Source: an uncultured Acidobacteriota bacterium (GTDB taxonomy: Bacteria > Acidobacteriota > Thermoanaerobaculia > UBA5066 > DATFVB01). From it: a stretch of 64,000 nucleotides of DNA. The notes beneath the pieces are model-generated. The model had not been told where the DNA came from and made no database searches. It was given only the letters and a program-made list of their open reading frames with translations. The stretch lies in NCBI GenBank assembly GCA_963813155.1, contig CAWEYG010000001.1:192001-256000 (forward strand), read 5' to 3'. Shown here one piece after another: positions 24,770-44,564 of this stretch (position 1 is its first letter; each line of letters opens with the position of its first letter). Made by a program: the position numbers and the translations under genes.

Positions 24770-25678
24770 TCATGGGGCATCGGCAAGGGCGCCCTTGAGG
24801 CCCCGCAGGTAGTCCGCCCGCAGCACCCGATCGATCGCGCGGCGGCCGCCCGGGATCTCCCAGCGCTCGCACATGCCGGCCCAGAAGCGCAGGGGCAGAG
24901 AGACGCCCGTACTCTCGACCCGGGCGGAGCTCACTCCGAGAAAGTCCGCGAGCTCGGGGTGCTTACGATAGAAGATCGCCGCCGCGCGGCCGGAGCGCTC
25001 CTGCCGCCGACGGAAGGAATCGAACGTGATCGCGTGGTGGTGCCGGACGACGGCGCCCGGCCGATAGACGATCACGTACCCGCTCTGCGACAGGCGATAG
25101 GAGAGCTCGATGTCTTCCCAGGCGGCGTCGGGAAACGTCGTGTCGAAGAGCCCGACCTCCAGAAGGGCCCGGCGGGGCAGCGAAATGTTCGACGTGTAGA
25201 AGAAATTGAAGGGAACGGAGTCGGGATCCTCGATCAGCTCGTAGCCGAACTGAAGGCCGTATTCGTTGATGTGATGGAGAAACGGCGTCACGCGCCGCTC
25301 CCGCGGCCAACCCGTGTACCCGAGGACCGCGACTTTTCTGCCGCCTGCCTCGCGGTGCGACCGCAGGTGCACGGCGAGGAATTCGGATTCCGGAACGGTG
25401 TCGTCTCCCAGGAAAACGACGACCTCTCCGTTCGCCGCGCGCACGCCGCGGTTCCGCGCTCCGGCCGGCCCCGTGTTCCCCTGCCTCATCACGGTGAGAT
25501 CGAAGGGCGCCGAATAGTGTTCCAGGATCTCCGGCGTTCCGTCGTTGGACCCGTCGTCGACGACGAGGACTTCGAAATCGTCCCGGGGCAGCGTCTGGCG
25601 CCCGAGCGCGTCGAGCACCCGCGAGACGGTATCCTTTCGGTTGAACGTCGGGATGACGACGGAAAGCTCCGCGCTCAC
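24770..25678 (-). CDS. Glycosyltransferase family 2
   Basis: SVVIPTFNR, VVDDGSNDGT, ARNRG, FLGDD, EDIELSYRL. Confidence 0.92.
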   Translation of the reverse strand: MSAELSVVIPTFNRKDTVSRVLDALGRQTLPRDDFEVLVVDDGSNDGTPEILEHYSAPFDLTVMRQGNTGPAGARNRGVRAANGEVVVFLGDDTVPESEFLAVHLRSHREAGGRKVAVLGYTGWPRERRVTPFLHHINEYGLQFGYELIEDPDSVPFNFFYTSNISLPRRALLEVGLFDTTFPDAAWEDIELSYRLSQSGYVIVYRPGAVVRHHHAITFDSFRRRQERSGRAAAIFYRKHPELADFLGVSSARVESTGVSLPLRFWAGMCERWEIPGGRRAIDRVLRADYLRGLKGALADAP

Positions 25679-26862
25679 CCGAGCCCCACGAAGATGTCGG
25701 CCAGGGTTCGAGGCTTCAACGACAGGAGCCGGGGACGAATCTCCTCGAAGAACCGCGAGGCGAGAAGGTCGTCCCCCGGGTACGTGGGGACGACCGCGGC
25801 CGGAAATTGCGAAAAAATCTCGCGATCCCCGCGCCGCCGGCGGGACTGGACCCATTCGCGCTTGCGTTGAAGCGCGTCGCGGCCGGCGACGATCCAGCGG
25901 AGGGCGCGCAGCTGGGCGATGGCGAGGGGGTCTTTCACGACAACGCTCTCGCCCGGCCGAATCCCGAACAGGCGCGACAGCGAAGAAGCCCACCGCTTCC
26001 TTCCCGCAGGTTCGTCGTACGGATCGCGGGACAGCTCTCCCGCGCCGGGGTCCCGCGACACCATCGCCGAGATCCGGGCGAGAAACGTCGCGAGCAGCGC
26101 CGGCAGGGCGTCCCGGAGGTGATCGGCTTCGAAATTCTTGTAGGCCGTGGCGAAGGCGTTTTTCTCGATCAGGAAGCCGCGCTTGAACACCCCGAGAGCC
26201 TCGCCCGTCGCGCCGCCCTCGTGCCGGGCCGACGCCCCGGGCTCGAAAAGGATCCGGCTTCCAAAAATCCACTGGCGCCACCCGAAGTCCACGTCCTCCA
26301 GGTAGGCGAAATAGTCGTCGTCGAATCCGCCCGTCTCCAGGAAGGCCTCGCGATCCGCCAGCATGTTCCCGCCGCACGCGAAGAGACGCTCTTCTCCGGC
26401 GGCGCCGGGAATGGCCGGAGCGCCCACGAGATCGGAAAATGCATGCCCGTCGAACGTCAGGAAACCGTCGGAGAAATCGTTTCGCTGCCCCGAAGAGTCG
26501 GTGAGACGCCCGGCGATGGCCGTCACGTCGCCCGGTTTCCGGTCCGCGGCGGAGAGGAAGCTCGGAAGCCAGCCGTCCTCGGGAACGGCGTCGTCGTTCA
26601 GAAAGATGACGCGGGGTCCCGAAGCCGCTTCGGCGCCCACCCGGCATGCCCGGGCGAAACCCAGGTTTCGATCCTGGGACAGGATACGAACCCGGGGAAA
26701 ACGCCGGGCGACTTCCGCGGAGGCCCCTTCGCGGGAGGCGTTGTCCACGAGAATCACTTCCGCGCCTTCCTTCCCGGCCTGCAGGTCGACGGGCGCCAGC
26801 GTCCGAAAGAGACGTTCCCGCCCCCGGTGGTGGACGATGACGATCGTCGCTCGCGGCGTCAG
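25675..26862 (-). CDS. Glycosyltransferase family 2 (rhamnosyltransferase-like); start uncertain
   Basis: VDNAS, NLGFA, FLNDD, GGFDDDYFAYLEDVDFGWR. Confidence 0.88.
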   Translation of the reverse strand: MTPRATIVIVHHRGRERLFRTLAPVDLQAGKEGAEVILVDNASREGASAEVARRFPRVRILSQDRNLGFARACRVGAEAASGPRVIFLNDDAVPEDGWLPSFLSAADRKPGDVTAIAGRLTDSSGQRNDFSDGFLTFDGHAFSDLVGAPAIPGAAGEERLFACGGNMLADREAFLETGGFDDDYFAYLEDVDFGWRQWIFGSRILFEPGASARHEGGATGEALGVFKRGFLIEKNAFATAYKNFEADHLRDALPALLATFLARISAMVSRDPGAGELSRDPYDEPAGRKRWASSLSRLFGIRPGESVVVKDPLAIAQLRALRWIVAGRDALQRKREWVQSRRRRGDREIFSQFPAAVVPTYPGDDLLASRFFEEIRPRLLSLKPRTLADIFVGLG

Positions 26863-28091
26863 CGCCCCCTCCGAAGAAGCCGAAACGCGGGACGAGGCCG
26901 CCGCTCGGGAAAATCGAGCCGGCTGGAGATCGACGGATGCTCGAAGAACTCGGCGAGCGGGAGCGTGACCCGGCTCCACGAGAACCCGCCCGCGAATTCG
27001 CGAGCGCGGCGGGACGCTTCCTTCCGGCGCGCCCCGTCCCGAAGGTAAGCCCGGATTGCCTCGCGAAGACCGTCCGCATCCTCAACGCAGGCGCCCGCGC
27101 CCGCCGCGGAGAGATCGCGGGCCAATCCGCCGCCTTCCAGCGAAACGGACGGAAGCCCGTAGGCGGCGGCGTCCAGAAGTCGCGTTCGAAAAGAAAGTTG
27201 CGTCTCGAGCCCCGGGCGGCAGAGACACACGGAAAGGGTCGAGGCCCCGTAGAGCTCGCCGCGACGATCGTACGGCGTCCACGGCAGGAAGAAGACCGAG
27301 CGCTCCGCCCAGCCGCGCCGCCGGGCGGCCGAAACCGCAGAATCGTAGACGCTCTGGGGCGTGCTCTCGCGATTGGGGTTCTCGCAGAAAATCAGTCGAA
27401 TCGACGGGAACTCCTCGAGAAGCGCCGGCCAGATCTGAAAGAGCGGCTCGGGGTCGTGCCAGTCGTAGAGGCCGCCGAAATAGAGCACGGGATCGCCGTC
27501 GTTCGCGCCGATTCTCGTTCGGATCGCGTCCGGGGCCGCGAAGGGAGCGGCTTCGACCCCGAAAGGAACGACGCGAACGAGGGAGCTTGCCTCCCGGTCC
27601 TGTTGAAAAGTCGCCCCGTTGACCCGGCCTCCCTGCAGAAGCATCCCGAGATAGAAGAGCCGCTGCTCTTCCGACGCGCAGAGGAACAGGTCCGCCCGGC
27701 AGAGGGCGAGGGCCCACGCGGCCCGATCGTTGGCCTCGACACCGTCGCCAAGCGACTCCCGGTACTGAAAATTCTCGACGAGGAAGGGATCGTACCAGTC
27801 GACGGCAACCGGCACATGGGGCGCGGCCAGGAAGAAGTAGTTCGCCGCGTGTCCCGAGACGAGCGCGGCGCGGCAATCGCGGATCTCCGAATGGAACGCC
27901 TCCGACCCGGGAGGCGCTCCGACGATCGCGACGCCTTTCGCGGCCGGAGCCTCCGCGGGATCGTTCGGAACGAGGAGGCGAACTTCGAAGCTCGCGGCTA
28001 GCGTTCGGGCGAGCTCGAGGGCGCGAATGCCCATCCCGGCCATCCGCGGGCGGATCGGCTCGGGGGCCAGCACGACGACTCTCCGATTCAC
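26859..28091 (-). CDS. Glycosyltransferase (GT-B, GT4-like)
   Basis: MAGMGIRALELA, DWYDP, GGLYDWHDP, SFRTRLLD, FSWSRV. Confidence 0.82.
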   Translation of the reverse strand: MNRRVVVLAPEPIRPRMAGMGIRALELARTLAASFEVRLLVPNDPAEAPAAKGVAIVGAPPGSEAFHSEIRDCRAALVSGHAANYFFLAAPHVPVAVDWYDPFLVENFQYRESLGDGVEANDRAAWALALCRADLFLCASEEQRLFYLGMLLQGGRVNGATFQQDREASSLVRVVPFGVEAAPFAAPDAIRTRIGANDGDPVLYFGGLYDWHDPEPLFQIWPALLEEFPSIRLIFCENPNRESTPQSVYDSAVSAARRRGWAERSVFFLPWTPYDRRGELYGASTLSVCLCRPGLETQLSFRTRLLDAAAYGLPSVSLEGGGLARDLSAAGAGACVEDADGLREAIRAYLRDGARRKEASRRAREFAGGFSWSRVTLPLAEFFEHPSISSRLDFPERRPRPAFRLLRRGR

Positions 28092-29929
28092 TTCCGTCCC
28101 CGCAGTTTCCCGGCCCAGAGGTGGATACGCCACGCCTTCGTTGCTTCCATCGCGCGGACCAGAGACGTCAGGCGATCGATCTCCACGTAGAGCGACTGTC
28201 CCAGGCGGGAAGCGTCGAGCACCTCCGCCGTGAGCCGCCGGGTCTCCGACTCCAGCGCCTGGACCGCTCCGAACCGCCGGTCCGACTCCGCGCGAATCTC
28301 CTCCAGGCACTCGCGGAGGCTCTGCGTCTCCCCCGCCAGACGGCGATGGCTCGCCCGCTGGTAGGCGAGCTCTCCCGCCGACCGATATTCCTTCTCGGAG
28401 ACCTCCCAGAGTCGCTTCGAAACGCGGTCGAGCACCCGGGCGGGCGTCTCGTCGTCGCGGAAGCCGCGGTACCGCTCCAGGATCTTCCGGCGAGCCGCGA
28501 GAAACGGCTCCCCCCCGGATTCCACGTGCCCCTCTTCTCCCTCGAAAACTCGGTAATAGGCCGTCACCGCCCGCAAGTGACGAAACGGCGCCTCTCGCGA
28601 AAGGCGGATCAGGAGATCCCAGTCCTCCGAGAATTCCAGGCCCGTGTCGAAACCTCCCGCCTTGCGGACGAGGGCCGCGTCGAAGAGAACGCACGGAAGC
28701 GGAATGTAGTTCGCGTAAAGGAGAAATTCTCGGTCGAAATCCATCGAGTACTGGAGCTCGCGATGACGCTCCTTCCACCCCTCGCCTTCGCGCTCCAGAA
28801 GCACGACGACCGAGTCGGAATAGACGATCGGTTCGGGACCGGCGGCGCGCGCGGCGAGCAGCCGCTCGAAGTGGTCGGGGGAGACGAGGTCGTCGTCGTC
28901 CAGATAGACGACCGCGTCTTCGCGGGTCTTCGCAAGGCCCTCGTTGGCCGCGGCCGACCTCCCGAGCGACTTTTCATGCGTCACCGGAAGCACGGAGAAC
29001 GCCGTTTCGAAACGGGACAGGAGCGGTTCGACGGCCACGCCGCCGTCGTTGACCACGACGACGCTTCGGGGCCTCGCCGTCTGGGCGGCCAGGCTCTCGA
29101 GAGCCTCGACGAGCAGGGCGGGGCGATTCTTCGTCCGGACGATGGCGGCGGCGGGCGCCGTCTGGTACGACCCCGCGGCGATCGATGCCGGCCCGATCGC
29201 CCGGCGAAGCTCCGCCAGGGGCGTGACCGAGGCATCCCGGGCGGAAATGACGTGAAAAGCTTCCACGGGTCCTGCGCCCGAGAGAGTCAGCGAGCGAAAA
29301 GCGTTCAACCCCGCGACCGCTCCCCCGTAGTCGCGGACCGCCGCCTGCGAAACGAACTTGCCGACGGCGCGATTCTTCTTCTCGCCGCGGTCGCCGAGCG
29401 GAACGAGCGCATTCGGCAGGATCGGCTGGGTCACCTCGTAGAACACGAGCCGAACAAGGCGGTACGTCTCGAAGCCGGCGTCTCCGGCCCGCATTCCGGC
29501 GACGAGGCCGTAGCCGGCTTCCGCGACGGCCCGGTGGTCGGGATGGATTTCGCACGGCGACGGAAGGACGATGACGTCGGGACGAAACGCCGTCACATGA
29601 TCGCGAAGCAGTTTCGCGAGGTCGCGCTTCCGCGCGGAGAGCGCGCGATCGGGCAGGCCCTCGAAGGCATAGTCCGAAATCCCGAGCTCGGCGCCAGCCT
29701 CCCTCGCCTCGCGCCGCCGGATCTCCGGATCGGACGAGCCTTCGCCCCGGTCCTCCTGCGCCTCGCCGCCCGTGAGAACGACGACGCGGACCGCCTCGGC
29801 GGTCTCCGCGAAGAAGGCGAGAAGGCCTCCGGCCCCGAAGACTTCGTCGTCGGGATGCGCGGCCAGCGCGAGAACCCTCTCGGCCCGGATCTCCGCGGCC
29901 TCGTAGGGAATCAAGTCTTTCTCTTCCAT
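28088..29929 (-). CDS. PIG-L/LmbE deacetylase + GT2 + C-terminal coiled coil fusion
   Basis: AHPDDE, RRREA, HPDH; VRTKNRP, VNDGG, YLDDDD, EDWDL; heptad-rich tail ending MEATKAWRI. Confidence 0.88.
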   Translation of the reverse strand: MEEKDLIPYEAAEIRAERVLALAAHPDDEVFGAGGLLAFFAETAEAVRVVVLTGGEAQEDRGEGSSDPEIRRREAREAGAELGISDYAFEGLPDRALSARKRDLAKLLRDHVTAFRPDVIVLPSPCEIHPDHRAVAEAGYGLVAGMRAGDAGFETYRLVRLVFYEVTQPILPNALVPLGDRGEKKNRAVGKFVSQAAVRDYGGAVAGLNAFRSLTLSGAGPVEAFHVISARDASVTPLAELRRAIGPASIAAGSYQTAPAAAIVRTKNRPALLVEALESLAAQTARPRSVVVVNDGGVAVEPLLSRFETAFSVLPVTHEKSLGRSAAANEGLAKTREDAVVYLDDDDLVSPDHFERLLAARAAGPEPIVYSDSVVVLLEREGEGWKERHRELQYSMDFDREFLLYANYIPLPCVLFDAALVRKAGGFDTGLEFSEDWDLLIRLSREAPFRHLRAVTAYYRVFEGEEGHVESGGEPFLAARRKILERYRGFRDDETPARVLDRVSKRLWEVSEKEYRSAGELAYQRASHRRLAGETQSLRECLEEIRAESDRRFGAVQALESETRRLTAEVLDASRLGQSLYVEIDRLTSLVRAMEATKAWRIHLWAGKLRGRK

Positions 29930-29948
29930 CGGTTTTCCGATTCTAACC

Positions 29949-30917
29949 TCAGCGGTCATCGTACACGCCGGCCGCCAGGTACGCGTGGTGAACGAACGTC
30001 TGCAGGGTCTCCTCGTCGAACACGACCGCGGTCACGAAGGAAAACCCCGCATCGCGGACCTGCCGCGGCCACTCGCGCCGACCGATCGCCGTTTCCATCG
30101 CGTTCCCGGCCGCGCCGCCGGGCGGCTGCCAGAAGACGAGATTTCGGCACCCCATCGCTCGAGCCTCGGCGCCCAGGTCTCCGAGAAGCGCTCCGGCCAG
30201 GCCGGGGTCGGGCCGTTCCAGCAGGTAGTCCATGACCAACGCCGTCTCTCCGACGGCGGAGAGAACGCCCCAGGCGCAGTCCCCCGACTCACCCGGAATC
30301 GTGATCATCCGGTAATACCGATCGGGCCGCGCGTGGTATCTCCAGTTCGCTCGCGCGCGGTCGCGAACGAGGCAGGCGGCGTCCACCGACGTCCGGGCCC
30401 GCGCCCAGAGCGCGTCGAAACCCGGCCCGACCGAATCCGATGCCACGGCCACTCCGGACGATTCACCCGGTGCCGAGATGTCGAGCCCGACCTCGCGGAT
30501 CGGGAAATGAGACCGATACCCGAGCAGGCGGCGGCCGATCTCATAGGCCCGCGAATTCGGAAACCCGAAGCCGAAGGGAATGCCGCGGTTCTTCAAGGCT
30601 TCGAACATCGCTTCCGCGATGGTTCGGAAGACGTTCCGGCGGCCGCCGAGATGCCGAACCGCGGGGTCGGTCGCGACGTCCCCGAGCGAGACGATCGTCG
30701 TCGGCCTTCCTCCGATCCAGGCGCCCATCAGCCATCCGCCGTAGTGGCCGACGATCCTCTCGTTCCATTCGGCGACGACCGAAATCCAGCCGTCGGGATT
30801 GGAGGGGTACTTCCAGCGCCACTCCTCCTCCGACATCGCCCTCGGAAAGACCAGGCCAAAGAGCTCGCGGATTCCGGCCGAATCGGAAACCGAGGCCATC
30901 CGCACGGAAAAACTCAC
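29949..30917 (-). CDS. GNAT family N-acyltransferase
   Basis: WRWKY, IVGHYGG, DVATDPAVR, FGFPN, WRY. Confidence 0.8.
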   Translation of the reverse strand: MSFSVRMASVSDSAGIRELFGLVFPRAMSEEEWRWKYPSNPDGWISVVAEWNERIVGHYGGWLMGAWIGGRPTTIVSLGDVATDPAVRHLGGRRNVFRTIAEAMFEALKNRGIPFGFGFPNSRAYEIGRRLLGYRSHFPIREVGLDISAPGESSGVAVASDSVGPGFDALWARARTSVDAACLVRDRARANWRYHARPDRYYRMITIPGESGDCAWGVLSAVGETALVMDYLLERPDPGLAGALLGDLGAEARAMGCRNLVFWQPPGGAAGNAMETAIGRREWPRQVRDAGFSFVTAVVFDEETLQTFVHHAYLAAGVYDDR

Positions 30918-31957
30918 GACCGGACCGCGTGAAAGATTTGTCCCGCCTCTCCGGTCGCCGTGTCGAAAATCCGCAGGTACAGGGAAGGGCCGATCGCGGC
31001 GAAGAGATCCGACAGCTCCACCTGGCCGTCGAGCGTCGCCGAGGCGAATGGCCGGGCGCTGGGGTTCAGCGAAACGGCGACGGCCGCCCCGGATCTCGCC
31101 TCGAGCGGCCGCGAGGCGTCCCACGCCGGCGGCGAGAACGAACGCGCGCGCTTCTCGGCCCAACCGAGAATCCCGCCGCCCAGCGCTCCCCAACGGCGCC
31201 GGCGATAGAGGCTCCTCGACGCCTGCCGCCTTCTCTCCGAATCGGGGTTCCGCGACGACGAGGACCCGGGGAAATGACATGCCCGGGACTCCGCGACGAC
31301 CCTCAGCCGGAGCCCGGCCGACCGCAGCCGATCCTCCCATTCCGTCTCTTCGTACTCGAAGGAGAACCGCTCGTCGAATCGTCCGACGCGGTCGAGAACG
31401 TCTTTTCGCGTCATCACGATCGAACCGGTCAGATGATCCGCGTCTCCGCCTCGCTGCCACAGGCGCCATTGCCGGGTCGCGGCGGAGGCGAACCGTCTCC
31501 GCTCCCACAGGCCGGGCGAGGCGCCCCGGAACTGAAGGAGGTCTCTCGCGAATCCGGGCGCGAAGCCGGTGGGAAGGAAAATGCGCGCCGTTCGGTCCGC
31601 GAACTGAACCGGAGCCGCCGCGCCCACCAGCTCCCGACTCGCCGCCTCGATCAAGGACCCGAGACAGCCGGGAAGGAACTCGATGTCCGCGTTGCAGAGG
31701 AGCAGCAGTTTCGACTCCCCCGCCGCGATCCCGGCATTCAGGCCGCCGGAGTAACCGCGATTCTCGCGCAGAAGAACGAGGCGGTCCGCCTCCACCGCCG
31801 GCAGCCGCCCGGCGTCGTCCGCGCCGGAATCGCAATCGACGACGACGACGAACGGCCGAACACCCTCCTCGCCGGCGGTCCGGCGCAAAGAGCGGACCGC
31901 CTCGAGGCAGAGATCGGCGGTTCGGTGGTTGACGAAGATCGCGGTGAAATCAAACAT
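30914..31957 (-). CDS. Glycosyltransferase family 2
   Basis: VVDCDS, NRGYSGGLNAG, CNAD, FDERFSFEYEETEW. Confidence 0.85.
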   Translation of the reverse strand: MFDFTAIFVNHRTADLCLEAVRSLRRTAGEEGVRPFVVVVDCDSGADDAGRLPAVEADRLVLLRENRGYSGGLNAGIAAGESKLLLLCNADIEFLPGCLGSLIEAASRELVGAAAPVQFADRTARIFLPTGFAPGFARDLLQFRGASPGLWERRRFASAATRQWRLWQRGGDADHLTGSIVMTRKDVLDRVGRFDERFSFEYEETEWEDRLRSAGLRLRVVAESRACHFPGSSSSRNPDSERRRQASRSLYRRRRWGALGGGILGWAEKRARSFSPPAWDASRPLEARSGAAVAVSLNPSARPFASATLDGQVELSDLFAAIGPSLYLRIFDTATGEAGQIFHAVRS

Positions 31958-32954
31958 CGACCGCTCTCCGAAACGCCTCCTCGAGCCGGTCGCCGACGTC
32001 CGCCGTTCGAAAGCGCCCGGCTCGCACGGGACCCTCGGCGGACAGCCTCCGGCGCGTCTCTTCCTCTCCGAGGAGCCGCAAGATCGCGAGTCGGATTCCC
32101 GCGACATCGCGAGGCGGAAAAAAGATCGCCGAGGCGCCGGCAATCGACCGGTGCGACGGCGTGTCGGAGAGCGCAGCCGGAAGCCCGGCCGCGAGCGCCT
32201 CGAGCGTCGGCAGTCCGAAACCCTCGTTCTCGTGGTTCGGGCCGAGAAAAATATCGGCGTCGGCGAGCAGCGCGGGCATCCGTCGCGGGGGAAGAGCGCG
32301 GTGGTAGTCGTCGACGACCCTCCATTGCCCCTCGCCGTCCGACATCGGTTCCGGCGACACGCGGACGAGCCGAAAGGGCCATCCCTGATCGCGCAGACCG
32401 CGAAGAGCCTCGAGGGCCTCGCGGACCCCCTTGAGATCGATCTCGAAGATTCCGGGCAGGAGGATCTTCAGGGGTCCCCTCGGGTCGGCCCGCGCGGCGC
32501 CGAGGAATTCCCCGGGTTCGAAGGCCTGGCCGACGTCCTGAACGTCCGAATAACCGAGACGATTGAGGGAATCGCGCAGGTGCGGCGAGACCACGACCTT
32601 TCGAGGGATGAGGCGATACGCGCCCTCGATCGCCTCACTCTGCGCAGCGTAGAAGGCGCTCTCGGTTTCGAGCCCCTGGCAGAGGTGAAACAGCGCCCCC
32701 GACGCCGTCGCCGCAGCCGGCTCGATCGTCGTCCAGAATGTCGCGACCGCGACGTCCGCGTCGCGAAGGCGTTCCGAGGAAGCGAAGAGCGATCTTTCGT
32801 ATCGCGCGTGCCGCAAGGAATACCAGCCGGGAGCGTCCTCGGGTCCGATCACCGTGACGGCGTGGCCCCGCCGCGCAAGCTCGTCGGCCTGCTGCAGGAT
32901 GACCTTCCCTCCCCCCGAAATCATGCTCGACGCCAGCAGGTAGACGATCTTCAT
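31950..32954 (-). CDS. Glycosyltransferase family 4
   Basis: SGGGKVI, ATFWTT, EGFGLPTLEALAAG. Confidence 0.9.
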   Translation of the reverse strand: MKIVYLLASSMISGGGKVILQQADELARRGHAVTVIGPEDAPGWYSLRHARYERSLFASSERLRDADVAVATFWTTIEPAAATASGALFHLCQGLETESAFYAAQSEAIEGAYRLIPRKVVVSPHLRDSLNRLGYSDVQDVGQAFEPGEFLGAARADPRGPLKILLPGIFEIDLKGVREALEALRGLRDQGWPFRLVRVSPEPMSDGEGQWRVVDDYHRALPPRRMPALLADADIFLGPNHENEGFGLPTLEALAAGLPAALSDTPSHRSIAGASAIFFPPRDVAGIRLAILRLLGEEETRRRLSAEGPVRAGRFRTADVGDRLEEAFRRAVDV

Positions 32955-35362: not shown

Positions 35363-35420
35363 TCTTCGTGCCATTCTACCGGTTGTACGGAGCGCGGCCC
35401 ACCCGGCGCGGCCGGGCCTC

Positions 35421-35451
35421 AAAAAGAGCGGCCCGGGTCGCCCCGGGCCGC
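35421..35451 (-). terminator. Rho-independent terminator after the PKD-domain gene
   Basis: Minus strand GCGGCCCGGG-GCGA-CCCGGGCCGC followed by TCTTTTT. Confidence 0.8.
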
Positions 35452-35473: not shown

Positions 35474-38400
35474 CTAGTTCGAAGGCTTCTTTCCCGGCAC
35501 GAAGACGAGGTCCTTGCTGTGCTGGTCCTGAACGGTCGCAAATGCGGCCACGGGCGTGTTTCCCGTGCCGGTGGCGCTGATGATCAGGTTGAAGGCCTTC
35601 CCTGCGAGTGCCGCCGTCGAGGCGTCGCCCGTCGTCGGCTGGTACACGAAATGGCCGATCCCGGCGCTGTTCAAGGTGTAGTCGCGGCTGAAGAGGGGCG
35701 CGCCCCCGGTGACGTCGTAGGCGTCGACGTGAACCGTGACCGGAGCATCGCCCATCGCCAGAAAGCCGAACTTCGAAATGAAATTGAAGTTGCCGGGCGT
35801 CGTCGAGTCCGGATCATTGTGAAGGCCGGCCAGGAAGATCTGCGAGTTCGAGCCGGGAAGCAGCCCGTCCGAAAGCGCATACGCCGGCAACTGCATCCCG
35901 TACGAACCGCCGTTGCTGTCGAGGTTGTAGTTTCGACCCTCGATGATGAGCGGCTGGTCGTCGTTCGGAACGTACTGAATCACGAGATCGCCGATGACGG
36001 TTCCCTGAACGGACGGGAAGAGCGTCGTCACGACGTCGTTGATCGAAAGGGCTTCTCCCCCCGGGATCGTCAGGAGCTCCACGAGTTGATAAGTCCTCTC
36101 CACCGCGGGCGTCACGCTCGCGTCCATGTAGTGCAATTGCACGTTCACGTTCGTCAGCGGGAAAGGCGACGTGTTCAGCATGTAGAGGTCCGTTCGGGTC
36201 CCTCCGTCGACCCGGCCCACGCCGGCAACGAAGTACTTGAGGGTCGCGCCCGGCGAGCCCACCTGGCGCGGCGTGTCGTCCGTCAGGAGCAACGAATCCT
36301 TCGTTCGGTTGTCGACGACCGTCCCGATCGCGATCGACGTGGCCCCTGCGCTGTTCGGATCCGGAGTGACCTTCGCGTAGAGGACGTTGTTCGGGTCCGG
36401 GTCGACGAGGAAGCAGGGACCGCCGCACGCCGTCGTGCTCGAGTCGACGAGGCCGATCTTCGCCTGCTGATATTGCCCCAGGGAGATCGCGAGCGACTGC
36501 CCCTCGGGCGTTCCGTCCGACTTGAAGAGCGAGACGTCGAAGACCCCGCCGGTCGAAGCCGTGTCGACGAGCGTGATCCCGCTGGAGAAGTTGTTGTCAA
36601 ACTTCAGCCCGACGAGGTTCTGGGTGGAAGACACGACGCCCTGGATCACCGGGCCGCTCCCGTTGATCTGGTACGACGGCAGATACGTTCCGTAGGTCGA
36701 GGCTCCCGCCCCGCCGGAGGAGTAGTAAATTCTCGCGAGAACCGTCGGAGCCTGGCCGGTGTACTTGATGAAGAGCGTGCCATAACCGGCTCCGCCGAGG
36801 AACGTCGTGATGTCACTGCTGTAGAACGACGCATGGCTCGCGAGCGGCTGCAACTGCGTGATCGACGTGTTGTAGCTCAACTTCGTGGGATCGGTCGTCT
36901 TCGTCGGATCGACCGCTTCGAAATCGAGCCCGACCGAGATCGGATTGCTGCTCGTGTTGAAAATCGAGAGCTCCGTCGCGAACGCGCCGACCTTGTTGCC
37001 GTTGCCGTCGTTCTTCGCGAGGTACCCTGCGCCCGGGACCACGAGCGCATTGAAGGCCTGGCCGGAGATCTTGAGGCTGGCAGAGGTCGTCGCGGACAGC
37101 GAGAGGCTGTTCGTCACCGTGAGACTGGCCTGGAACGTTCCGGGACCGCTGTACGCATGCGTCACCGCGGTGCCCGTGGCGGAGGAGCCGTCGCCAAACG
37201 CCCAATTGAAGACCGGGCTGTTCTGCGTCTCCTGGCCCTGGAACGAAATGACGTCCCCGGCCTTCGCAGAATACGTTCCGCCGAACTGGCTGAACTGCGC
37301 GCCGGTGATCGTGAATGCGGCCGACGGCGCCCCGGTGGGCGGCGGCGGCGGGGGCGGAGTCCCCCCCCGACCGAAACCTGTTTCGTCGCCGAGTACGACT
37401 GCCCGGAGACCGTAACGGTGAGGCTCAGTGTCGCGGTCTGGTTCGGCGTGTTGAACGTCCGGGTGATCGACGTGACCGTCGGGCCTCCCGTGGGGTTCAG
37501 CGTATTGTCGGACCAGATCCAGCCGTAAGAGCTGGGTGTGCCGCCCGACACGGTCGCCGTCCACGTATTTGCAGTCCCCGCGCTGACCGAGGTCGGTCCC
37601 GAAATCGAAGCCGACACTCCCCCCGGCGGTGGTGGCGGAGGCGGCGGAGGCGGCGGAGGCGGCGGAGGCGGCGGAGGCGGCGCCGACGACTGAATGGTGA
37701 TCGCCTGATTCATGACGATGCCTCCCACGGTCAGCTTCACCGTACGGGTCGCTGCCGAGGAGAACGTATGACTGACGGTCAGGTTCGTGGAAGAGTTCAC
37801 AACCGCGCTGCCGTCGCCGAAGTCCCAGGAGTCCGCGGTCGCCGGCTTGCTGCTGTCTCCCGAATCGTTCATCGGGATCGACTGGTTCATCGGCGCGCTC
37901 CAGGCACCGTTGAATTGGTTGAACGTCGCGGGGCTGCCGAAATTGATCGCGGGCGCGTAGGTGACGTTTGTCCCGATGATCGCTCCCGAATCCCAGTTGA
38001 TCGTCTTCGCGGAGCCGTCGTTGTAGGCGACCTGGAAGTGGACGTAGTAAGTGCCCGAGCTCGACGGGCCGGGCAGCGCCGTCGTCGCGTTGATCGCGTC
38101 GAATGCGCTCGGAAGCGCGGTCGCCCCCGTCCCGGTCGGGTTCGAGTCCCTCGTGTATGAGATGCCGGTGATCGACACTCCCGACGCCAGCTGACACAGG
38201 TTCTGAACGTTGAAATTCTGATTGAGCTGCACGGTCGTAGGCACCGAAAAGTTCGGAATGATCGACGTGACGTGCACGGTCCCGCTGACGGCCGCGGCCT
38301 TGTATCCCCCGGCGTAATTCGCGGCGACCGAGAACGTGTTTCCGTCGGAGACCGACGACCACGTGCACGGCTTGGCCGACTGGGTGGAACCGTTCTGGAT

Positions 38401-40105
38401 GACCCAGTCGCAGCTCACCGGCGAGCCCTGCGAAACGGTCGCGTCGAGCGACTGGCCGGTGAAGAGGTTGACGACTCCGGACGTGAAGTTCTTCACTTTC
38501 GTCAGGGGCTTCGTCAACGAAATCGGCTGGCTCCCGACGTTCGCCGAGACACCGTACGTGTTCTCTGATTGATTCGCGATCGTCTCGGACGTGTCGGGCG
38601 AGCTCGCGTTGTAACAGCCGCTTCCCGTCGTGATATCGCCGCTCGAGGACTTGCACGGCAGGATCGCGTTGAACGTGCCATTCACGAGAGTCTGGTCTTT
38701 CCCGCTGCTCGAGAACGTGCCCGTGAAGTCCATGTCCCAGAAATATCCGGTAATCGGGGGGGTCGTCGGCACCGAAGCGTCAGTGATATTGAACATGTCG
38801 CCGACATAGTTTGTCGGATCAGCCCCAACGTGCTTCGAGATATTTTGCACGCCAAGACCCGCAGTCGGAGGAGAGGTCTGTGCCGCCTGAAGGCACGAAA
38901 CGTTGATCGTGTCGGTCTGAGGAGGATTGGGTTGTTCGTCGAATCGGGACCGATCAAGCGATAGAGATAGGCGTTATTTCCCTGGATGTAGGCTTCAAAC
39001 AGCCCTTGTTCACTCGCAGCCTGAGGGACATTGATCTTCGCGGGCGTGCCACCCGAAGCGATCGATCCGACCCCAATAAGGTCGTAACCGAGGATCGCGA
39101 GCGACGAGGTGTTGATCGCCGAACCAACCAGCACCAAAGAGGAGCCGCTTCCTCGGACGATGATGTTCGTGTAGGCCCTGTAGACGCCACTGGAGATCAC
39201 ATCCGAGGGGACGTCCACCAGATGGGTAATCGAGCTGAGGGCCGGGTCGAATTTCATCACCTCGATTTTTGTCGGATATTCATTGAGAAAAATCCAGTAG
39301 ACGCCTCCTTGATAGCTGACGTCGAGTGATTTGAGGCTCGAAGGAGCATAAGAGCCAACGTCGGTAATCGTTCCGTTGCTCGACACCTGGCCGATCTTCA
39401 GCGACTGCGGGTTCCTCCCCACGCTGGCAAAGAGATAGGTCGAGCCTGACTGCCCATCAGAAACCAGGTTTTTCGCGAGCGGCCAGGTATTTGCCTGAAA
39501 CCCGGGTAGTGTCGTCGAAACGCCTCCGTCCACGGACGTGATGTTGACGCCAAACAGACCGGTCCCGCTCGTGTAGTAGGCATAAGTCGAGCTTCCGGCC
39601 TTCAACACCGTGACGAGCGCGCCTCTCGTGTTGGAGCCCCCGCCAAACGGGTCGAGCTGAGTGCCAAAGGCGATGTTGCCGCTCGTCGCCACCTTCAGGG
39701 CCTGGCCCGGCTCCGCGCCGGCAACTGTATTGAAACAGACCGCGATCCGGCCGCCGGAGCTATCGAAGTACCCGGCCCGTCAACGCCCTGGTAATCCGCC
39801 AGAAGCGGAAGCGGCCCCCCGTCGTTGCTGTCCAGCGGAACAAACGTCAACGAAGGCGTCGCGGGTGAGCTTGAAACGTCGAGCCGGGTGATTCCAGCGA
39901 GGTTCGTGACGATCGACCCATTGCCCGACCCCGCTTCCTTCTCGATGCCCGATGTCAGATAGGCCTTACTCGGAAAGTGCTGAATCGAAGTGCTCGTGAT
40001 CGTTCCACAGGACTGCGCCAGGAGCGGCGGCGAGAAACCGGCGGCGCCCAAAACGACCCCGACGACGACCAGGGCTGTGAGGAAAGATCGGGACAGAAAA
40101 CGCAT
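35474..40105 (-). CDS. Large secreted PKD-domain surface protein (~1500 aa; several frameshifts)
   Basis: Signal peptide MRFLSRSFLTALVVVG; S/T/G/N-rich; PKD motifs WDFGDGS...HTFS and WAFGDGS...HAYSGPGTF; poly-Pro linkers; reconstructed from ORFs 39695..40237, 38682..39692, 37162..38850 and 35474..38656. Confidence 0.78.
37624..37682 (-). repeat. 9-bp tandem repeat (CCGCCGCCT)n encoding about 19 consecutive prolines
   Basis: Plus strand ggcggaggc repeated about 5 times; translation APPPPPPPPPPPPPPPPPPPGG. Confidence 0.9.
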
Positions 40106-40242: not shown

Positions 40243-40255
40243 GAGACCGAAGAGC

Positions 40256-41815
40256 TTAGTTCGTGGCCCAGTCCAACCGGCCAGGGGTAACGCAATGAGA
40301 AGTCAGACTCCGTGGGGTCGTCAAGATCAGTGAGACCCTCCGGGTGGCAGGTGCTCGGATCGAGCTGAGCGCCCGGAATGCTCGCGTTGACGAACGCGAC
40401 GCCCGAGGACATTTCGTAGTCGACCCACGCCTGGTCGAAGATCCTGATCGTCCGGGCAACGATTGGTCTCTGCCGAGGAAGTTCAGATACGCCCATCCGT
40501 TCGTCGAAGAGCGCCGATCGTGTCCACGCCGGTGCGCTGCGTCTCGTAGGGGAAGTTCAGCGAGGTCCTCGGGCAGGGAGACGGGCAGCCGTTGATCTGC
40601 TGCGTTCCTTCGTCCGAGTCGAACAATACCGTCGCCAGGATCGTGGGCTTCCGTCGCGGGATGCAGGAGTGCCCCGTGAGATCCGACAGGTCTCCGCAGA
40701 GGCGCGCCACACGCGCAGGTTCGAGGAGCGTCGCCGCTGTTCAGGTAGCGGGCTCCGTAACGAACGCCGAGCGGCTCACGCTGATCGCCGAGGTCGCGGT
40801 GACAAACGGGAACACCGCCGCCATGTAACGGCTACCGAGTCGCGTCGTCCGTTGTTGATCGTACCGGGGTCTCCAGTCGGCGACAGTCGTGTTCCCATTG
40901 GTCGTTTTCGACCAGTAGCGGGCATAGAACGTCCGAACCGGAATCCATCTGAGTCGTTGAACGGCTGGTTACCAAATCGGAACGGTAGCTCCGCGCTCGT
41001 CGCCGCCGTGTCGAGCGCCGCTTCGATCTGGACCGTCGAGGCGCCGAGCGTCGGGATGCCGCTGTTCGTCACGATGATGTAGTCGCCGAACAGGTTGTTC
41101 TCCCAGCCGGCCGCGTCGAACTCCCAGTAGGACGGCGGTGGAGGGATCGGAAAGTCGACAGAAGTTCGCCATGTCGATCGTGACATAGCCCGAGAGGTTT
41201 CCGTTGCCGGCAACCGAGCTGCCCGTGATGATCGCCTGTCTCATCGCCGTCGCCGTCGCAATCCCAGTTGGAATCGTAGTCCAGCGCGTCCGCCAGGTCG
41301 GCCGCAAAGTCCGGCCCGAACGCCGGGCGAGCTGTACTGGGTCGATCGCCTGTCGATTGTCCTGCCCCGTCGGGGGATCGTCGGACGGAAACGCAGGAAT
41401 CCTTCGCGTTCGGATACACTGTCACTCCCGCGCCGCGCTGGCAGACGTCCACGCCCTGAAGGAACCGTTGTCCGGCGTGCTCGGGATGTTCCCGTCAGCA
41501 CGTCTTCCATCGAGAAGCCGACGATGTCGAAGCCGGTCAGCGCGATGTTGAAGTCGAGAAGTGGACAGAACGGCGGTTCCACATCACGACGTGAGCCAGC
41601 GTCGGCGCGCTCGAAGCATTGACGACCGTGATCAGCGTGTCGGTTCGCGTGGAGCTCGTGTCCACCGAACCGTCGGCATTGAGATGCACCTGGAAATAGG
41701 GAACCAGGAGCGTCGCAGCCGGCCGCTGGTCGATCGTGCAGGTCACGGCCATCGCGGAGGACGCCACAGCGACCAACGCGACGACCACCAGCAGATAGGT
41801 CAACGTCTTTTTCAT
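40256..41815 (-). CDS. Secreted hypothetical protein, S-layer/major surface protein candidate (multiple frameshifts; 3' end approximate)
   Basis: Signal peptide MKKTLTYLLVVVALVAVASSAMA; CTIDQRPAATLLVPYF, DFNIALTGFD, GYVTID, NNLFGDY, VQIEA, QAWV fragments across frames; own promoter and terminator. Confidence 0.65.
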
Positions 41816-41981
41816 TAAGATCTCCTCATTTAGTTTCTTTACAATTTCCGAGAACATTCCCTGGAAAAAGTCGAGATCCCGCCTGCGATGCCATCACCTC
41901 CTAGAGTTTCGTTCCAAGCAATTCCAAAAAATCCCAAAACCTCGTTCCGATGTTCTTTTGCCCTCATGGGCCTGCGGACGG

Positions 41982-42011
41982 ATCATGCGCGACTCGCCAG
42001 CGGGATGTCAA
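41982..42011 (-). promoter_or_regulatory. sigma70 promoter with AT-rich upstream element for the S-layer-like gene
   Basis: TTGACA-N18-CATGAT, preceded by an A/T tract; gives a 5'UTR of about 160 nt. Confidence 0.7.
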
Positions 42012-42072: not shown

Positions 42073-43719
42073 TCATTTACCCTGGTTCAGAAATATCTCG
42101 AATCCTCCCCGATCCTCTTTCCGGTCGTCGTACGTCGTTTCGGCCAAAATGACATCCAGCTTGCCATCGCCGTTCAAATCGGCGAGTCGGACGTCGGCAA
42201 CGGCCGAGCGGAGCTCCGGCTCGAGCTTCTCGGGGGATTCGACGAACTTTCCCTCGGGCGTCTGGTAGAAAATTCGCAGCCTCTTCGCAATGAAATCGGG
42301 AAAGACCACGTCGTCGAGCCCGTCGCCGTCGATATCCCCCATGGCGACCGACACCAGATGGCTCGACTTGTAGTCCTTTTCGCGCCAGACGGGGACCTTG
42401 CTCCAGATCCCGTTCCGGTCGACATAGACAGTCACGCCGGCCGCCAACAGCGGGCTCCCGATCTCGCGCCGATAGAACACATCCGCGAACGCCGGAAATT
42501 TCTCCTTACCGAAACGCCCCGATGCCAGCCCGAGGTGATAAGCGCTCAATTCCTCATCCTCGAAGGAGAAGCCCGTGAAAGTTCCCTTCCCGTTATTTCG
42601 CCAGACAAGGTCCATCGCGCCGAGATTGATCGCTCCCATCACGAGGCTCGGCGCAGGGTCTCCGTCGAGCGAGATCGCCGCGACGTGGTTCGACGGGTAG
42701 CCACCCCCGCCGACGAACGCGGACTGTTCGTACTCCCATCCTTCCGGAAGATGGTTTCGAAACACGCGAACGGGATGCTTGTCGACGTTGCCTCGCTCGG
42801 CCGAATCTCCGGGCGCGTCTCGGGAAACGACGAGATCGATCTTTCCATCGCCGTCCACGTCGAAGGCGGCGATTCCCTGCGAGGAGAACTTCGCGGGAAG
42901 GCCCTTGTCCATTGGAGTGAAATGAAAGTTCTGGCGCTGCAGAAAAACGTGGACTCCGCCGCCGTGCGACGCGATCGCGATGTCGGATTTCCCGTCCCCG
43001 TCGAAATCGGCGACCGCGACGCCGCCGTACCCCGTGTCAGTCTTCACGGGGTTCCCCGATTTGTCGACGAACTCCGGCGTCTGCTCCCGGAAGTTCCCGT
43101 GCCCGTCGCCGAGAAAGAGATAGAACGTCGCTCCGGAGCTGACCCGGTTCGGCGAAGTCACGATATCCGGAAATCCATCGCCGTTGATATCGGCGACCGC
43201 GATGTTTTGCCTCCACTGGCCGCCTTCCGGGAGGCCGGCACCGGCCTTGACGAAGTGGACTCCGCTGTTTCCGCGGGTCGGGACGATCGATTCGAAATCC
43301 TCGGGCTTCAGCGCGGGTCCGCTTTCCTCCGGCGGTTTGGCCGCAACCTTTTCCTTCTGCTTCTCGTCCCGTTCCTTCCGCGCCGCATCGATCTCTTCTG
43401 GCGACCACTTCTCCGTCCGAATGTAGTAATAGGTATCGTCTTCGCGATAGATGGGAAGCGACGCCTTCTCGCCGAGCCGTACAGGACGGACACGGTTTGC
43501 GCCGATCCGGATCATCTCGGATTTCTTGTACCGCCGGATGTAGTAGGAGTCGGTCTCTTCCACCACGTCCGGGTCAGTCTTGGATTTCGGCTGGACGTAG
43601 TGGAACCCGACCGGGACTGCCGGGGCATCCTGCTTCGGGGAGGAGGAACAGGCGCCGATCAGGAGGACGGCGCCGGAAATCACGACTGCCCAGGGAAACC
43701 GCCAGAATCGAACCTTCAT
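42073..43719 (-). CDS. FG-GAP/VCBS repeat lipoprotein (beta-propeller)
   Basis: Lipobox IGAC; repeats ADINGDGFPDI, ADFDGDGKSDI, DVDGDGKIDL, GDIDGDGLDDV, ADLNGDGKLDV. Confidence 0.9.
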   Translation of the reverse strand: MKVRFWRFPWAVVISGAVLLIGACSSSPKQDAPAVPVGFHYVQPKSKTDPDVVEETDSYYIRRYKKSEMIRIGANRVRPVRLGEKASLPIYREDDTYYYIRTEKWSPEEIDAARKERDEKQKEKVAAKPPEESGPALKPEDFESIVPTRGNSGVHFVKAGAGLPEGGQWRQNIAVADINGDGFPDIVTSPNRVSSGATFYLFLGDGHGNFREQTPEFVDKSGNPVKTDTGYGGVAVADFDGDGKSDIAIASHGGGVHVFLQRQNFHFTPMDKGLPAKFSSQGIAAFDVDGDGKIDLVVSRDAPGDSAERGNVDKHPVRVFRNHLPEGWEYEQSAFVGGGGYPSNHVAAISLDGDPAPSLVMGAINLGAMDLVWRNNGKGTFTGFSFEDEELSAYHLGLASGRFGKEKFPAFADVFYRREIGSPLLAAGVTVYVDRNGIWSKVPVWREKDYKSSHLVSVAMGDIDGDGLDDVVFPDFIAKRLRIFYQTPEGKFVESPEKLEPELRSAVADVRLADLNGDGKLDVILAETTYDDRKEDRGGFEIFLNQGK

Positions 43720-43754
43720 GAAAACTCCTTGTTCGGCCGTTCGGCCAGAATCTG

Positions 43755-44564
43755 TCACAACAAATCGGCGAAATGCGGCTCCGTCTTCGTAAAGAGAAAC
43801 GAGCCGAGCGTCGCCGCGGAAATCGCGAAGAGCGCAAGATACGCGAGAGAGCCGGCGCCCGGCAAGCGGTGCCGAAAGAACGCGTCGCGAAACGCTTCGA
43901 TCAGCTGAGCGAAGGGATTGATCTGAACGACCCACCGAAGCCGCCTCGGGACCAGGCTGGCCGAGTAGAAGATCGGGGTCAGAAACGACAGCATTCCGAG
44001 GCCGAGAGCCACGACCTGCGAGGTGTCCCGCAGGAAGACGTGCAGGCCGGCCAGGAAGCACCCGAGCCCGTAGGTCATGACGACTTGCACGAGGAGCAGC
44101 AGGGCGACGACCGGAATCCATTTCAGCGACAGGTGCCCTCTCCACGCCAGGTAACCGCAATAAAGAGCGAAACCGATCATTTCGTTGAAAACGGCGGAGA
44201 GCACGACGGTCGCGACGAGCGACTCCTTGAGAAAAACCGTCTTCTTCACCATCGAGGCGTTGTCGGAGAGGCAGGTCGACGCGCGGGAGATTCCTTCTTG
44301 CACCGCGAGCCAGGGGAGAAACCCCGCCAGAAGGTATTCCGGAAAATTCACGCCCGGAGGCTCTCCGGAGAGAGGGATTTTCAGGACCACGGAAAACACG
44401 AAAGAGTAGATGAGAACCCAGGCGAGCGGCACGAAGAACGCCCACGCCGGCCCGAACGTCGAGCCGACATACCGGGATTTCAAATCACGATTAACGAGCT
44501 CCGAAAGGAGGTAAACAGATTGAAGTTTTCTGCCTCGAAACGTACCTGACGTCTTGACTTTCAC
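43755..44564 (-). CDS. wzm: Polysaccharide ABC exporter permease
   Basis: RDLKSRYVGSTFG, GFLPW, VKKTVF, FLRD, TPIFY, INPF, FADLL. Confidence 0.92.
   Translation of the reverse strand: MKVKTSGTFRGRKLQSVYLLSELVNRDLKSRYVGSTFGPAWAFFVPLAWVLIYSFVFSVVLKIPLSGEPPGVNFPEYLLAGFLPWLAVQEGISRASTCLSDNASMVKKTVFLKESLVATVVLSAVFNEMIGFALYCGYLAWRGHLSLKWIPVVALLLLVQVVMTYGLGCFLAGLHVFLRDTSQVVALGLGMLSFLTPIFYSASLVPRRLRWVVQINPFAQLIEAFRDAFFRHRLPGAGSLAYLALFAISAATLGSFLFTKTEPHFADLL

Follow-up and report, generated by a model that had tools for sequence, protein, structure and literature searches.

The window analyzed here is a stretch of 64,000 nucleotides (C1:192001-256000) from the genome of an uncultured soil bacterium of the Thermoanaerobaculia, a class of the Acidobacteriota (G000; 3.8 Mb in 23 contigs, 66% G+C, 90.8% complete). 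It holds a conserved module of genes (23607-47011) in which wzm and wzt, the permease and ATPase genes of an ABC-type glycan exporter, are neither adjacent nor overlapping. Both lie on the minus strand, 8.3 kb apart, with the end of wzm at 43755 and the start of wzt at 35422, and the three genes between them encode an FG-GAP lipoprotein, an acidic secreted protein, hereafter sec, and a giant secreted protein. A methyltransferase gene and a run of glycosyltransferase (GT) genes follow.

Gene identities come from Pfam searches with the long minus-strand open reading frames (ORFs) of the window, and the gene calling is crude. The minus-strand run given by a first-pass annotation of the same DNA is confirmed, with wzm, the FG-GAP gene, the PKD giant, wzt, the methyltransferase and GTs identified by Pfam and the secreted protein by its signal peptide. 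Of the three stand-alone GT2 genes listed in that annotation, two gave no Pfam match even at E 0.1. The module also reaches beyond the extent proposed at that time: it takes in a PEGA gene at one end and, at the other, a fourth secreted-protein gene and the XRE and TPR genes that diverge from wzm. Its genes and signals are listed below, with Pfam E-values in brackets.

23607..24641, minus strand: PEGA-domain secreted protein, the last conserved gene of the module (Pfam PEGA, 5.2e-12)
24770..27085, minus strand: GT2 glycosyltransferase ORF (Glycos_transf_2, 2.4e-28, residues 475-595)
26859..28778, minus strand: GT4-like glycosyltransferase (Glyco_trans_1_4, 2.9e-07), order kept in relatives
28088..29959, minus strand: PIG-L de-N-acetylase fused to a GT2 (PIG-L, 1.5e-28; Glycos_transf_2, 9.1e-17)
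29949..31835, minus strand: 628-aa ORF with a GNAT domain in its center (Acetyltransf_9, 6.9e-09)
31950..33518, minus strand: GT4 glycosyltransferase (Glyco_trans_1_4, 2.3e-12; Glycos_transf_1, 4.9e-12)
32951..34123, minus strand: S-adenosylmethionine (SAM) methyltransferase, candidate chain-capping enzyme (Methyltransf_23, 1.1e-20)
34130..35422, minus strand: wzt, ABC ATPase with a C-terminal Wzt_C glycan-binding domain (ABC_tran, 2.3e-20; Wzt_C, 1.1e-12)
35451-35428, minus strand: terminator-like hairpin at the end of the giant gene, just before wzt (ten G-C pairs, then a T-run)
35474..40105, minus strand: giant secreted protein of ~1540 aa with signal peptide, PKD domains and poly-Pro; three frameshifts
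40242-40217, minus strand: terminator-like hairpin after sec (11-pair stem, then a T-run)
40260..41815, minus strand: sec, acidic secreted protein (~50 kDa, two beta-sandwich domains), reading frame broken at 10 or more places
41816..42011, minus strand: sec promoter and leader of ~170 nt (-35, -10-like hexamer, anti-16S box, Shine-Dalgarno (SD) site)
42073..43719, minus strand: FG-GAP beta-propeller lipoprotein, intact (FG-GAP_3, 4.7e-35, in 5 stretches; lipobox LIGAC)
43755..44564, minus strand: wzm, ABC-2 permease (ABC2_membrane, 9.5e-18)
44594..44962, plus strand: XRE-family helix-turn-helix (HTH) regulator, divergent from wzm (HTH_3, 2.6e-12), kept in linked loci
45032..45931, plus strand: TPR protein, 299 aa (TPR_2, TPR_12), conserved
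45928..47011, plus strand: fourth secreted protein, s353 (~350 aa), found in three pieces by tblastn with a 353-aa protein of the relative G004

Conservation of the module across the class

How stable is this layout? Stretches of 40 kb around the wzt orthologue were taken from eight relatives in two families (G001, G004, G010, G016, G018, G020, G022, and G024), and three further relatives (G002, G003, and G005) entered as whole short contigs, each with part of the locus only. By tblastn with pieces of the window, all eight of the former share one gene order: HTH/TPR, wzm, FG-GAP, sec, giant, wzt, methyltransferase, GT4, GNAT, PIG-L/GT2, GT4, and GT2. The FG-GAP query of the window exceeded 50 bits in G001 only, and in the other seven this gene was placed by means of ORF lists. 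Identity ranges from 46 to 93% for wzm across the eight relatives and from 60 to 96% for the wzt orthologues in families f1 and f3, and the methyltransferase gene keeps its position directly after wzt. In the seven relatives outside the genus of the window the genes are intact, with products of 540-570 aa (FG-GAP lipoprotein), 470-530 aa (sec), and 1430-1700 aa (giant). The PEGA gene comes right after the last GT2 gene in seven of the eight and is missing in G010, while s353 has matches in 56 stored loci, duplicates included. Since the synteny holds across the relatives, a chance layout is excluded.

The wider distribution of sec was followed by a pattern scan with one genome per species, which found 709 stretches encoding a relative of sec; 76 loci were kept. 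Module genes adjoin sec in 53 of these 76 Thermoanaerobaculia/Acidobacteriota loci. The other 23 are paralogues (two of them being short contigs), and those inspected either have unrelated housekeeping genes as neighbors or form tandem arrays. Taken with the eight shared gene orders, this answers the synteny check proposed in the first-pass annotation: the secreted genes do stay linked to wzm and wzt across the class. One of the arrays, in a Thermoanaerobaculia metagenome-assembled genome (L064 4956-12891), consists of four tandem sec paralogues of 459-520 aa near typA and a RecA-like/ImuB-type pair.

Of 301 genomes sampled evenly across the phylum, 25 have sec, namely 21 of the 27 from the class of the window and 4 of the 274 others (tallies including the unpublished G008). 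Five class genomes without sec, four of family f10 and one of f7, also have no FG-GAP orthologue, with partial FG-GAP-repeat matches of at most 60.8 bits, and each of them has a Wzt-like ATPase. In the two f10 genomes inspected (G263 and G213), no module gene lies near this ATPase within the fetched stretch. Among the genomes tested, then, the module is all-or-none. The ATPase gene of G263 (L096 14081-15391, 44% identity) has metG on one side and a 2-hydroxyacid dehydrogenase gene on the other, and permease or GT genes were not found nearby; family f10 had been considered as a natural control for the adjacency of wzm and wzt, and it failed as such, the Wzt-like gene being an orphan.

A further gene belongs to the locus elsewhere in the class. 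A radical-SAM/SPASM gene of ~380 aa lies between giant and wzt in all seven relatives outside the genus of the window (L001, where it occupies 18884-19954, and G010, G016, G018, G020, G022, and G024); it is absent from the window and has no match in G001. The enzyme may modify a Cys-containing secreted protein.

As for the gene boundaries in the window, several need correction. The FG-GAP ORF spans 42073-44445, and its true ATG is at 43719, 35 nt past the wzm stop and preceded by an AAGGAG site. The GT4 ORF 31950..33518 has a called start that reaches too far, into the methyltransferase gene, and the true start of the GT2 ORF 24770..27085 is uncertain and probably further downstream: relatives match from about residue 200-270 on, and Pfam gives no match over its N-terminal 467 aa. 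The parts of the 628-aa ORF that flank its GNAT domain are likewise without a Pfam match. On the plus strand, the start of s353 overlaps the stop codon of the TPR gene. A minus-strand ORF upstream of wzm (44561-45892, "up443") was rejected as an antisense shadow of the XRE-HTH and TPR genes. Around the module, the window carries a large partner-switching signaling set (13870-16216, 19340-22120, and 56566-58548), in which a HATPase_c_2 kinase accompanies three SpoIIE-type phosphatases equipped with GAF, PDZ or FHA domains.

The secreted proteins and their expression signals

The most distinctive component of the module is sec, whose family is uncharacterized and almost confined to this class. 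Among the candidates scored, the G004 orthologue has 304 homologues at E ≤0.001; the named ones are all "hypothetical", and the named organisms belong to the Thermoanaerobaculia and the Holophagales only. A 36-member profile collects 2092, 1556, and 901 representative clusters at E ≤1e-3, 1e-10, and 1e-30, respectively. The protein belongs to no Pfam or NCBIfam family (Pfam gives nothing beyond chance rows for any of the 36 members), its profile has no match to PDB sequences at E ≤1, and in the ESM Atlas it matches only unnamed Acidobacteriota clusters. The genome of the window has one sec locus; other genera have up to six matches per genome, some of which are pieces of one gene.

The sec gene starts at 41815 with a signal peptide. 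The mature protein has a mass of 48-54 kDa, a pI of 4.05-4.36, 16-20% Ser and Thr, 8-14 Cys, and only 2.3-3.9% Lys and Arg, against 11-14% in the cytoplasmic enzymes and in the FG-GAP lipoprotein, whose composition is ordinary. Across the 36 sequences, 44 columns are invariant. The AlphaFold model (pTM 0.77) contains two beta-sandwich domains, at about residues 30-250 and 320-445. The best VIA-align match of the N-terminal domain is TM1070 (1nc7_A; Z 8.5, rmsd 3.5, 114 of 116 residues), the next one having Z 5.2, and Foldseek gives weak matches only. The ASRT/TM1070 (ASRAH) superfamily consists of predicted sugar-binding beta-sandwiches, with extracellular versions in cell-surface lipoproteins (PMC2739507). 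A double jelly roll of the PRD1 P3 kind was considered for sec and dropped: the Foldseek E value of 7.7e-4 comes with a TM score of 0.15-0.18 and a probability of 0.28, and PRD1 P3 is not among the 50 listed VIA-align matches.

Other genomes encode larger proteins that carry the complete sec unit at one of their ends. The unit comes after PKD domains in P0233 and P0282 and after twelve DUF11 repeats in P0309, and it precedes Big and cadherin-like repeats in P0319. Because it sits at the ends of giants built of PKD, DUF11 or Big repeats, the unit looks more like a terminal binding or anchoring module. By Pfam and NCBIfam, sec itself carries no known anchoring module, and no SLH domain was found in the 90.8% complete genome.

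The giant protein has ~1540 aa, 162 kDa, a pI of 4.66, and 3.7% Lys and Arg. It comprises a signal peptide, a variable N-region (ESM Atlas scores ≤0.77), PKD domains, a run of 19 Pro codons (37680-37624), and a conserved C-terminal part of 526 aa; the N-terminal half is poorly conserved, and Pfam families other than PKD were not found. Modeled from the unbroken frame of the window itself, the C-terminal 526 aa form four beta-sandwiches (pLDDT 84.3, pTM 0.85), the second of which again has TM1070 as its best match (Z 10.2, rmsd 2.6, 107 of 116 residues). A homology between sec and this C-terminus was tried and rejected: BLASTP finds nothing, hhalign gives a probability of 1.8%, and the shared "T-D-L-x-h-x-N-x-S" look is by eye only.

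The third protein encoded between wzm and wzt has both features of an FG-GAP/VCBS beta-propeller lipoprotein, namely the repeats and a lipobox (LIGAC) after a signal peptide. Because its gene lies 35 nt after wzm with an SD site of its own, it is probably co-transcribed with wzm. In nearly all linked loci, the FG-GAP orthologues stop ~250 nt before sec.

In the window, this gap contains a promoter-like site and a long leader. The first-pass annotation had credited the secreted gene with its own promoter and terminator, and both are borne out by a promoter-like site, TTGACA-18-CATGAT (-35 at 42011-42006, -10-like hexamer at 41987-41982), and by the 11-pair hairpin after the gene. When the 250-270 nt in front of sec are aligned for 15 loci, they display, in order, a conserved AGCATATTTTT element upstream of the -35, a TTGACA/T hexamer at the -35, a -10-like hexamer after another 17 nt, an invariant GGAGGTGATG core in a longer conserved box ~65 nt upstream of the start codon, and an invariant Shine-Dalgarno region, GAGGAGATCT. 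These signals are kept across genera although the sec proteins downstream are only ~40% identical to one another. On this evidence, sec has the sequence marks of a strongly expressed, monocistronic gene for an extracytoplasmic protein.

Within the leader, a 9-nt core, GGAGGTGAT (41901-41893, minus strand), pairs without mismatch with the 3' end of the 16S rRNA of the same genome. It precedes the real Shine-Dalgarno site of sec by ~65-75 nt, and it is found upstream of 43 of the 45 module-linked sec copies versus 2 of the 19 unlinked paralogues. The so-called STAB-SD is a known kind of mRNA-stabilizing or ribosome stand-by element, and we tentatively read the box, by analogy, as one of these. 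Rfam gave two chance-level rows only (E ~1) on 39500-45200, and RNAalifold found no consensus structure in the leader alignment (8 pairs, no covariation). By single-sequence folding, a hairpin in the first 45 nt after the predicted start is present in most of 30 loci with a mean z of only -1.1, and it is not claimed.

The genes of the secreted proteins are broken in this assembly. Compared with the nearly intact orthologue of G001, from the same genus, the well-matched segments of sec change frame at least 10 times, with 20 gaps not divisible by three at 80.6% nucleotide identity and many single-base deletions outside long homopolymers. The giant has three frameshifts and s353 at least two, its match falling in three pieces. 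The damage is uneven: none was seen in the FG-GAP, wzm, wzt or GT genes. The FG-GAP gene aligns to G004 as a single high-scoring segment pair, and the wzm, wzt, PIG-L/GT2, GNAT, and GT4-like ORFs align to it over nearly their whole length. Elsewhere in the window, the transketolase gene (1563 to ~3540, minus strand) has one frameshift at ~2830, with its N- and C-terminal halves in different frames. Short-read contigs from soil metagenomes, from strains ~90-99% alike, carry 1-nt insertions at 41564, 41486/41487, and 37360/37363, places where the frames of the window break. Because these independent contigs restore single nucleotides at the breaks, those of sec, the giant, and s353 are probably consensus errors, concentrated where co-occurring strains differ most. 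A joint decay of the secreted-protein genes in this lineage is a conceivable alternative.

Interpretation of the module

The enzymes of the module, together with the Wzt_C domain (48.5 bits versus a cut-off of 30.4) and the adjacent methyltransferase, fit a cap-dependent ABC pathway, by analogy with the one used for the O8/O9a antigens and the Geobacillus S-layer glycans, as described in PMC2943079. The logic of such a pathway is already known. In the present case the GT4, GT2, PIG-L, and GNAT enzymes would build a lipid-linked glycan on the cytoplasmic face of the membrane, and the methyltransferase would cap the chain, a candidate role suggested by the precedents of O8/O9a and WsaE (PMC2943079). 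Wzt would then sense the cap by means of Wzt_C, and Wzm/Wzt would export the chain. Finally, a ligase encoded elsewhere would fix it to a carrier, probably a lipid.

Where could ligase and primer come from? The first-pass annotation had noted that no oligosaccharyltransferase or ligase is present in the window, and indeed no Wzy_C (PF04932) is found there; a search of the whole genome returns five matches, all elsewhere. Both matches to Glycos_transf_4 (PF00953, WecA/MraY type) are outside the window as well, and no WbaP-type primer appeared in the crude Pfam pass over the ORFs of the window, in which PF02397 was not searched alone. A candidate source is a second polysaccharide region on contig C6 (~13-49 kb), with a TagH/Wzt-like ATPase at C6:13057, a Wzy_C protein at C6:35144, and a Glycos_transf_4 protein at C6:48336. 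The organism has the marks of an outer membrane: a Kdo hydroxylase in the window and, beside sec paralogues in other genomes, TamA/TamB and an OmpW-like protein. The Kdo hydroxylase gene (8495-10754, minus strand; Kdo_hydroxy, 6.3e-80) marks a modified lipopolysaccharide (LPS) core and lies next to a radical-SAM/SPASM gene that is not orthologous to the one between giant and wzt in the relatives.

Several lines of evidence speak for a link in function between the secreted proteins and this glycan: their genes are stably embedded in the locus, the special leader is found on the linked sec copy only, and the proteins combine an extracellular-type composition with a shared predicted sugar-binding fold. 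The reading that we favor, at somewhat less than an even chance, is that of a class-wide envelope module of the Thermoanaerobaculia, in which an abundant coat protein, sec, and a stalked giant are attached non-covalently to the exported polysaccharide. Strongly expressed sec (~50 kDa) and the giant (~160 kDa) would leave the cytoplasm by the Sec route and attach to the glycan via their TM1070/ASRAH-like beta-sandwiches, which are predicted to bind sugars. The resulting protein coat would have sec as its bulk component and the giant, with its PKD domains and poly-Pro run, as the stalked one. The FG-GAP lipoprotein may take part in hand-over or assembly, either within the periplasm or on the inner side of the outer membrane. 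Since the fold evidence points to sugar binding, non-covalent attachment to the glycan is at least as likely as glycosylation.

A bolder form of this coat reading is tentative, and we hold it to be doubtful as a whole. It would describe a surface coat of the Thermoanaerobaculia not reported before, in which a very abundant protein of two beta-sandwiches and a stalked giant relative sit on a methyl-capped polysaccharide; the split exporter genes would hold the structural genes, and the anti-16S box would drive or stabilize the main transcript.

A number of observations weigh against a sugar-bound coat. The confidence of the sec model is middling (pLDDT 67.9), and the matches to TM1070 are moderate, since a model that has no clear relative typically reaches a Z value close to 8-10 with its best match. 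Neither sec nor the giant has a Pfam ASRT match, and the profile comparison of sec with the C-terminus of the giant (probability 1.8%) is not significant. The invariant columns of sec contain many Asp, Glu, His, Arg, and Ser residues, a pattern that might indicate an enzyme and not a binder. The module contains no outer-membrane secretion system, and no RNA data set is listed for 35400-44600. The 23 paralogues among the 76 sec loci are remote from glycan genes. Lastly, sec, giant, and s353 are frameshifted here; were the breaks real, the proteins would not be made in this organism.

Among the alternatives, the one that survives best is the S-layer, although we regard it as unlikely. It takes sec to be an S-layer protein that forms a two-dimensional lattice and is covalently O-glycosylated with the glycan exported by Wzm/Wzt, the FG-GAP lipoprotein serving as anchor or assembly factor; lattice and covalent glycosylation are both suppositions. 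In its expression signals, its acidity, its scarcity of Lys and Arg, and its secretion, sec does resemble S-layer proteins, and it is presumably abundant. Its gene remains linked to wzm/wzt, the methyltransferase, and the GTs and is monocistronic, the promoter being strong, the leader long and conserved, and the end marked by a terminator; the model of the protein is all-beta. S-layer genes are known to occur as several paralogues per genome, as sec does in other genera, and any of the five Wzy_C proteins encoded elsewhere could supply the transferase. Against this stand the absence from the window of Wzy_C and Glycos_transf_4 (and of a WbaP type in that crude pass, made with no separate PF02397 search), the distance between wzm and wzt, and the want of SLH or any other known anchor. 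High conservation and 8-14 Cys are unusual for S-layer proteins, and sec has both, with its 44 invariant columns. No solved S-layer protein is found among its listed structural matches, and the use of the sec unit as the terminal module of repeat-rich giants argues in the same direction.

It is rather improbable, in our estimate, that the cluster is an ordinary one for O-antigen or another lipid-linked polysaccharide, with the secreted genes as adhesins or passengers that were inserted once in the ancestor of the class and kept by inheritance. Wzm, Wzt_C, the methyltransferase, and the GTs do make up the standard set of ABC-dependent O-polysaccharides, and the LPS marks, with the Kdo hydroxylase in the window and Wzy_C elsewhere, agree with it; moreover, sec and giant have their own terminators and hence are separate transcription units, and sec paralogues sit among housekeeping genes. 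Yet order and spacing are kept across families in which sec is only ~30-40% identical, and the special leader belongs to the locus-linked copy only. The sec-less class genomes tested also lack the FG-GAP orthologue, and the two inspected have no module beside the Wzt-like gene. Such joint absence is hard to account for unless there is a functional link.

We give little credence to the idea that polysaccharide transport or assembly beyond the inner membrane employs the FG-GAP lipoprotein, sec, and the giant, in place of outer-membrane polysaccharide export (OPX), polysaccharide co-polymerase (PCP) or ligase components. The module has no OPX, PCP or ligase gene, the FG-GAP gene lies close behind wzm and probably shares its transcript, and the predicted folds are sugar-binding ones; however, a 160-kDa protein with PKD and poly-Pro and a 50-kDa one of extracellular type resemble no known export component, many sec paralogues are free-standing or fused to adhesin-like repeats, and the N-terminal half of the giant is poorly conserved. 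Nor is it at all probable that sec is a secreted jelly-roll-type hydrolase, lyase or transferase that trims or remodels the exported polymer: the 44 invariant columns (which include Trp as well), the two beta-sandwich/jelly-roll domains, and weak Foldseek matches to PNGase F (probability 0.23) and to accessory domains of glycosidases would suit it, but sec matches no enzyme family by sequence, its structural matches to enzymes are all to non-catalytic beta-sandwich domains at Z ≤5.2, and a structural protein needed in stoichiometric amounts would better account for its expression signals and composition.

Why does a putative coat of this kind matter? The Acidobacteriota are among the commonest soil bacteria, and their cell surface is almost unknown. 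The module offers a defined genetic handle on the cell covering across a whole class, together with the large unannotated sec family and several smaller conserved proteins that likewise lack annotation. In soil, the covering of a cell matters for the adsorption of phages, for aggregation, for attachment to minerals, and for the tolerance of desiccation. The conserved anti-16S leader box is a testable regulatory element in its own right, and an ABC-type glycan cluster with its transporter genes stably split by structural genes is unusual for such a well-studied pathway.

Relation to known systems

Literature searches returned no description of an S-layer or of this locus in the Thermoanaerobaculia, and a text search for the split wzm/wzt layout listed none. 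The split itself, the class-wide unannotated secreted proteins, and the conserved leader are thus not described in the searchable literature. Systems that share some of these parts can nevertheless be compared with the module.

The first-pass annotation had likened the locus to the slg clusters of Geobacillus and Paenibacillus. This likeness stands as far as the ABC exporter, Wzt_C, the methyltransferase, and the GT logic are concerned, and it falls with respect to a Wzy_C transferase in the window and the adjacency of wzm and wzt. As reviewed in PMC2943079, the slg clusters of Geobacillus stearothermophilus NRS 2004/3a and Paenibacillus alvei have a Wzm/Wzt exporter, a methyltransferase capable of capping, a run of GTs, a TPR protein nearby, and, close by, a gene for an abundant secreted surface protein, all of which have counterparts here if sec is as abundant as it appears and the methyltransferase caps the chain. 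According to the same review (PMC2943079), both clusters encode a Wzy_C oligosaccharyltransferase (WsaB/WsfB), initiation is by WbaP-type enzymes (WsaP/WsfP), and the general layout has rml genes downstream; none of these was found in the window, where PF02397 was not the object of a search of its own. In G. stearothermophilus wzm, wzt, and wsaE overlap (PMC2943079), whereas here wzm and wzt lie 8.3 kb apart with three genes between them. The slg hosts are monoderm, in contrast to an organism with outer-membrane marks, and sec is matched by no sequence family of Pfam or NCBIfam and by no PDB sequence, its listed folds including no solved S-layer protein.

The O8/O9a systems of Escherichia coli, with Wzm/Wzt and WbdD, which PMC2943079 cites, resemble the module in their biosynthetic part. 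They share the ABC2_membrane permease, the Wzt_C ATPase, the methyltransferase beside wzt, the GT4 and GT2 enzymes, and, as proposed for the module, a ligase encoded elsewhere in the genome. The difference lies in the secreted-protein genes, which here stand between wzm and wzt. No O-antigen cluster is known to carry conserved secreted-protein genes in that place.

As for the ASRT/TM1070 superfamily, it provides the best fold match both of the N-terminal domain of sec (Z 8.5) and of the second C-terminal domain of the giant (Z 10.2). The relation does not extend to a match at the level of sequence, and the sec domain has an insertion of ~80 residues and is joined to a second beta-sandwich.

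The last comparison is with the S-layer protein RsaA of Caulobacter crescentus, which is anchored non-covalently to the O-antigen of smooth LPS, has RTX-type Ca2+ repeats, and leaves the cell through a type I system whose genes lie next to its own. The module differs from it in its Sec signal peptides, in having no type I system, and in its folds. What the two have in common is a diderm host, genes for protein and polysaccharide in one region, and, as proposed here, an attachment of the protein that depends on the polysaccharide.

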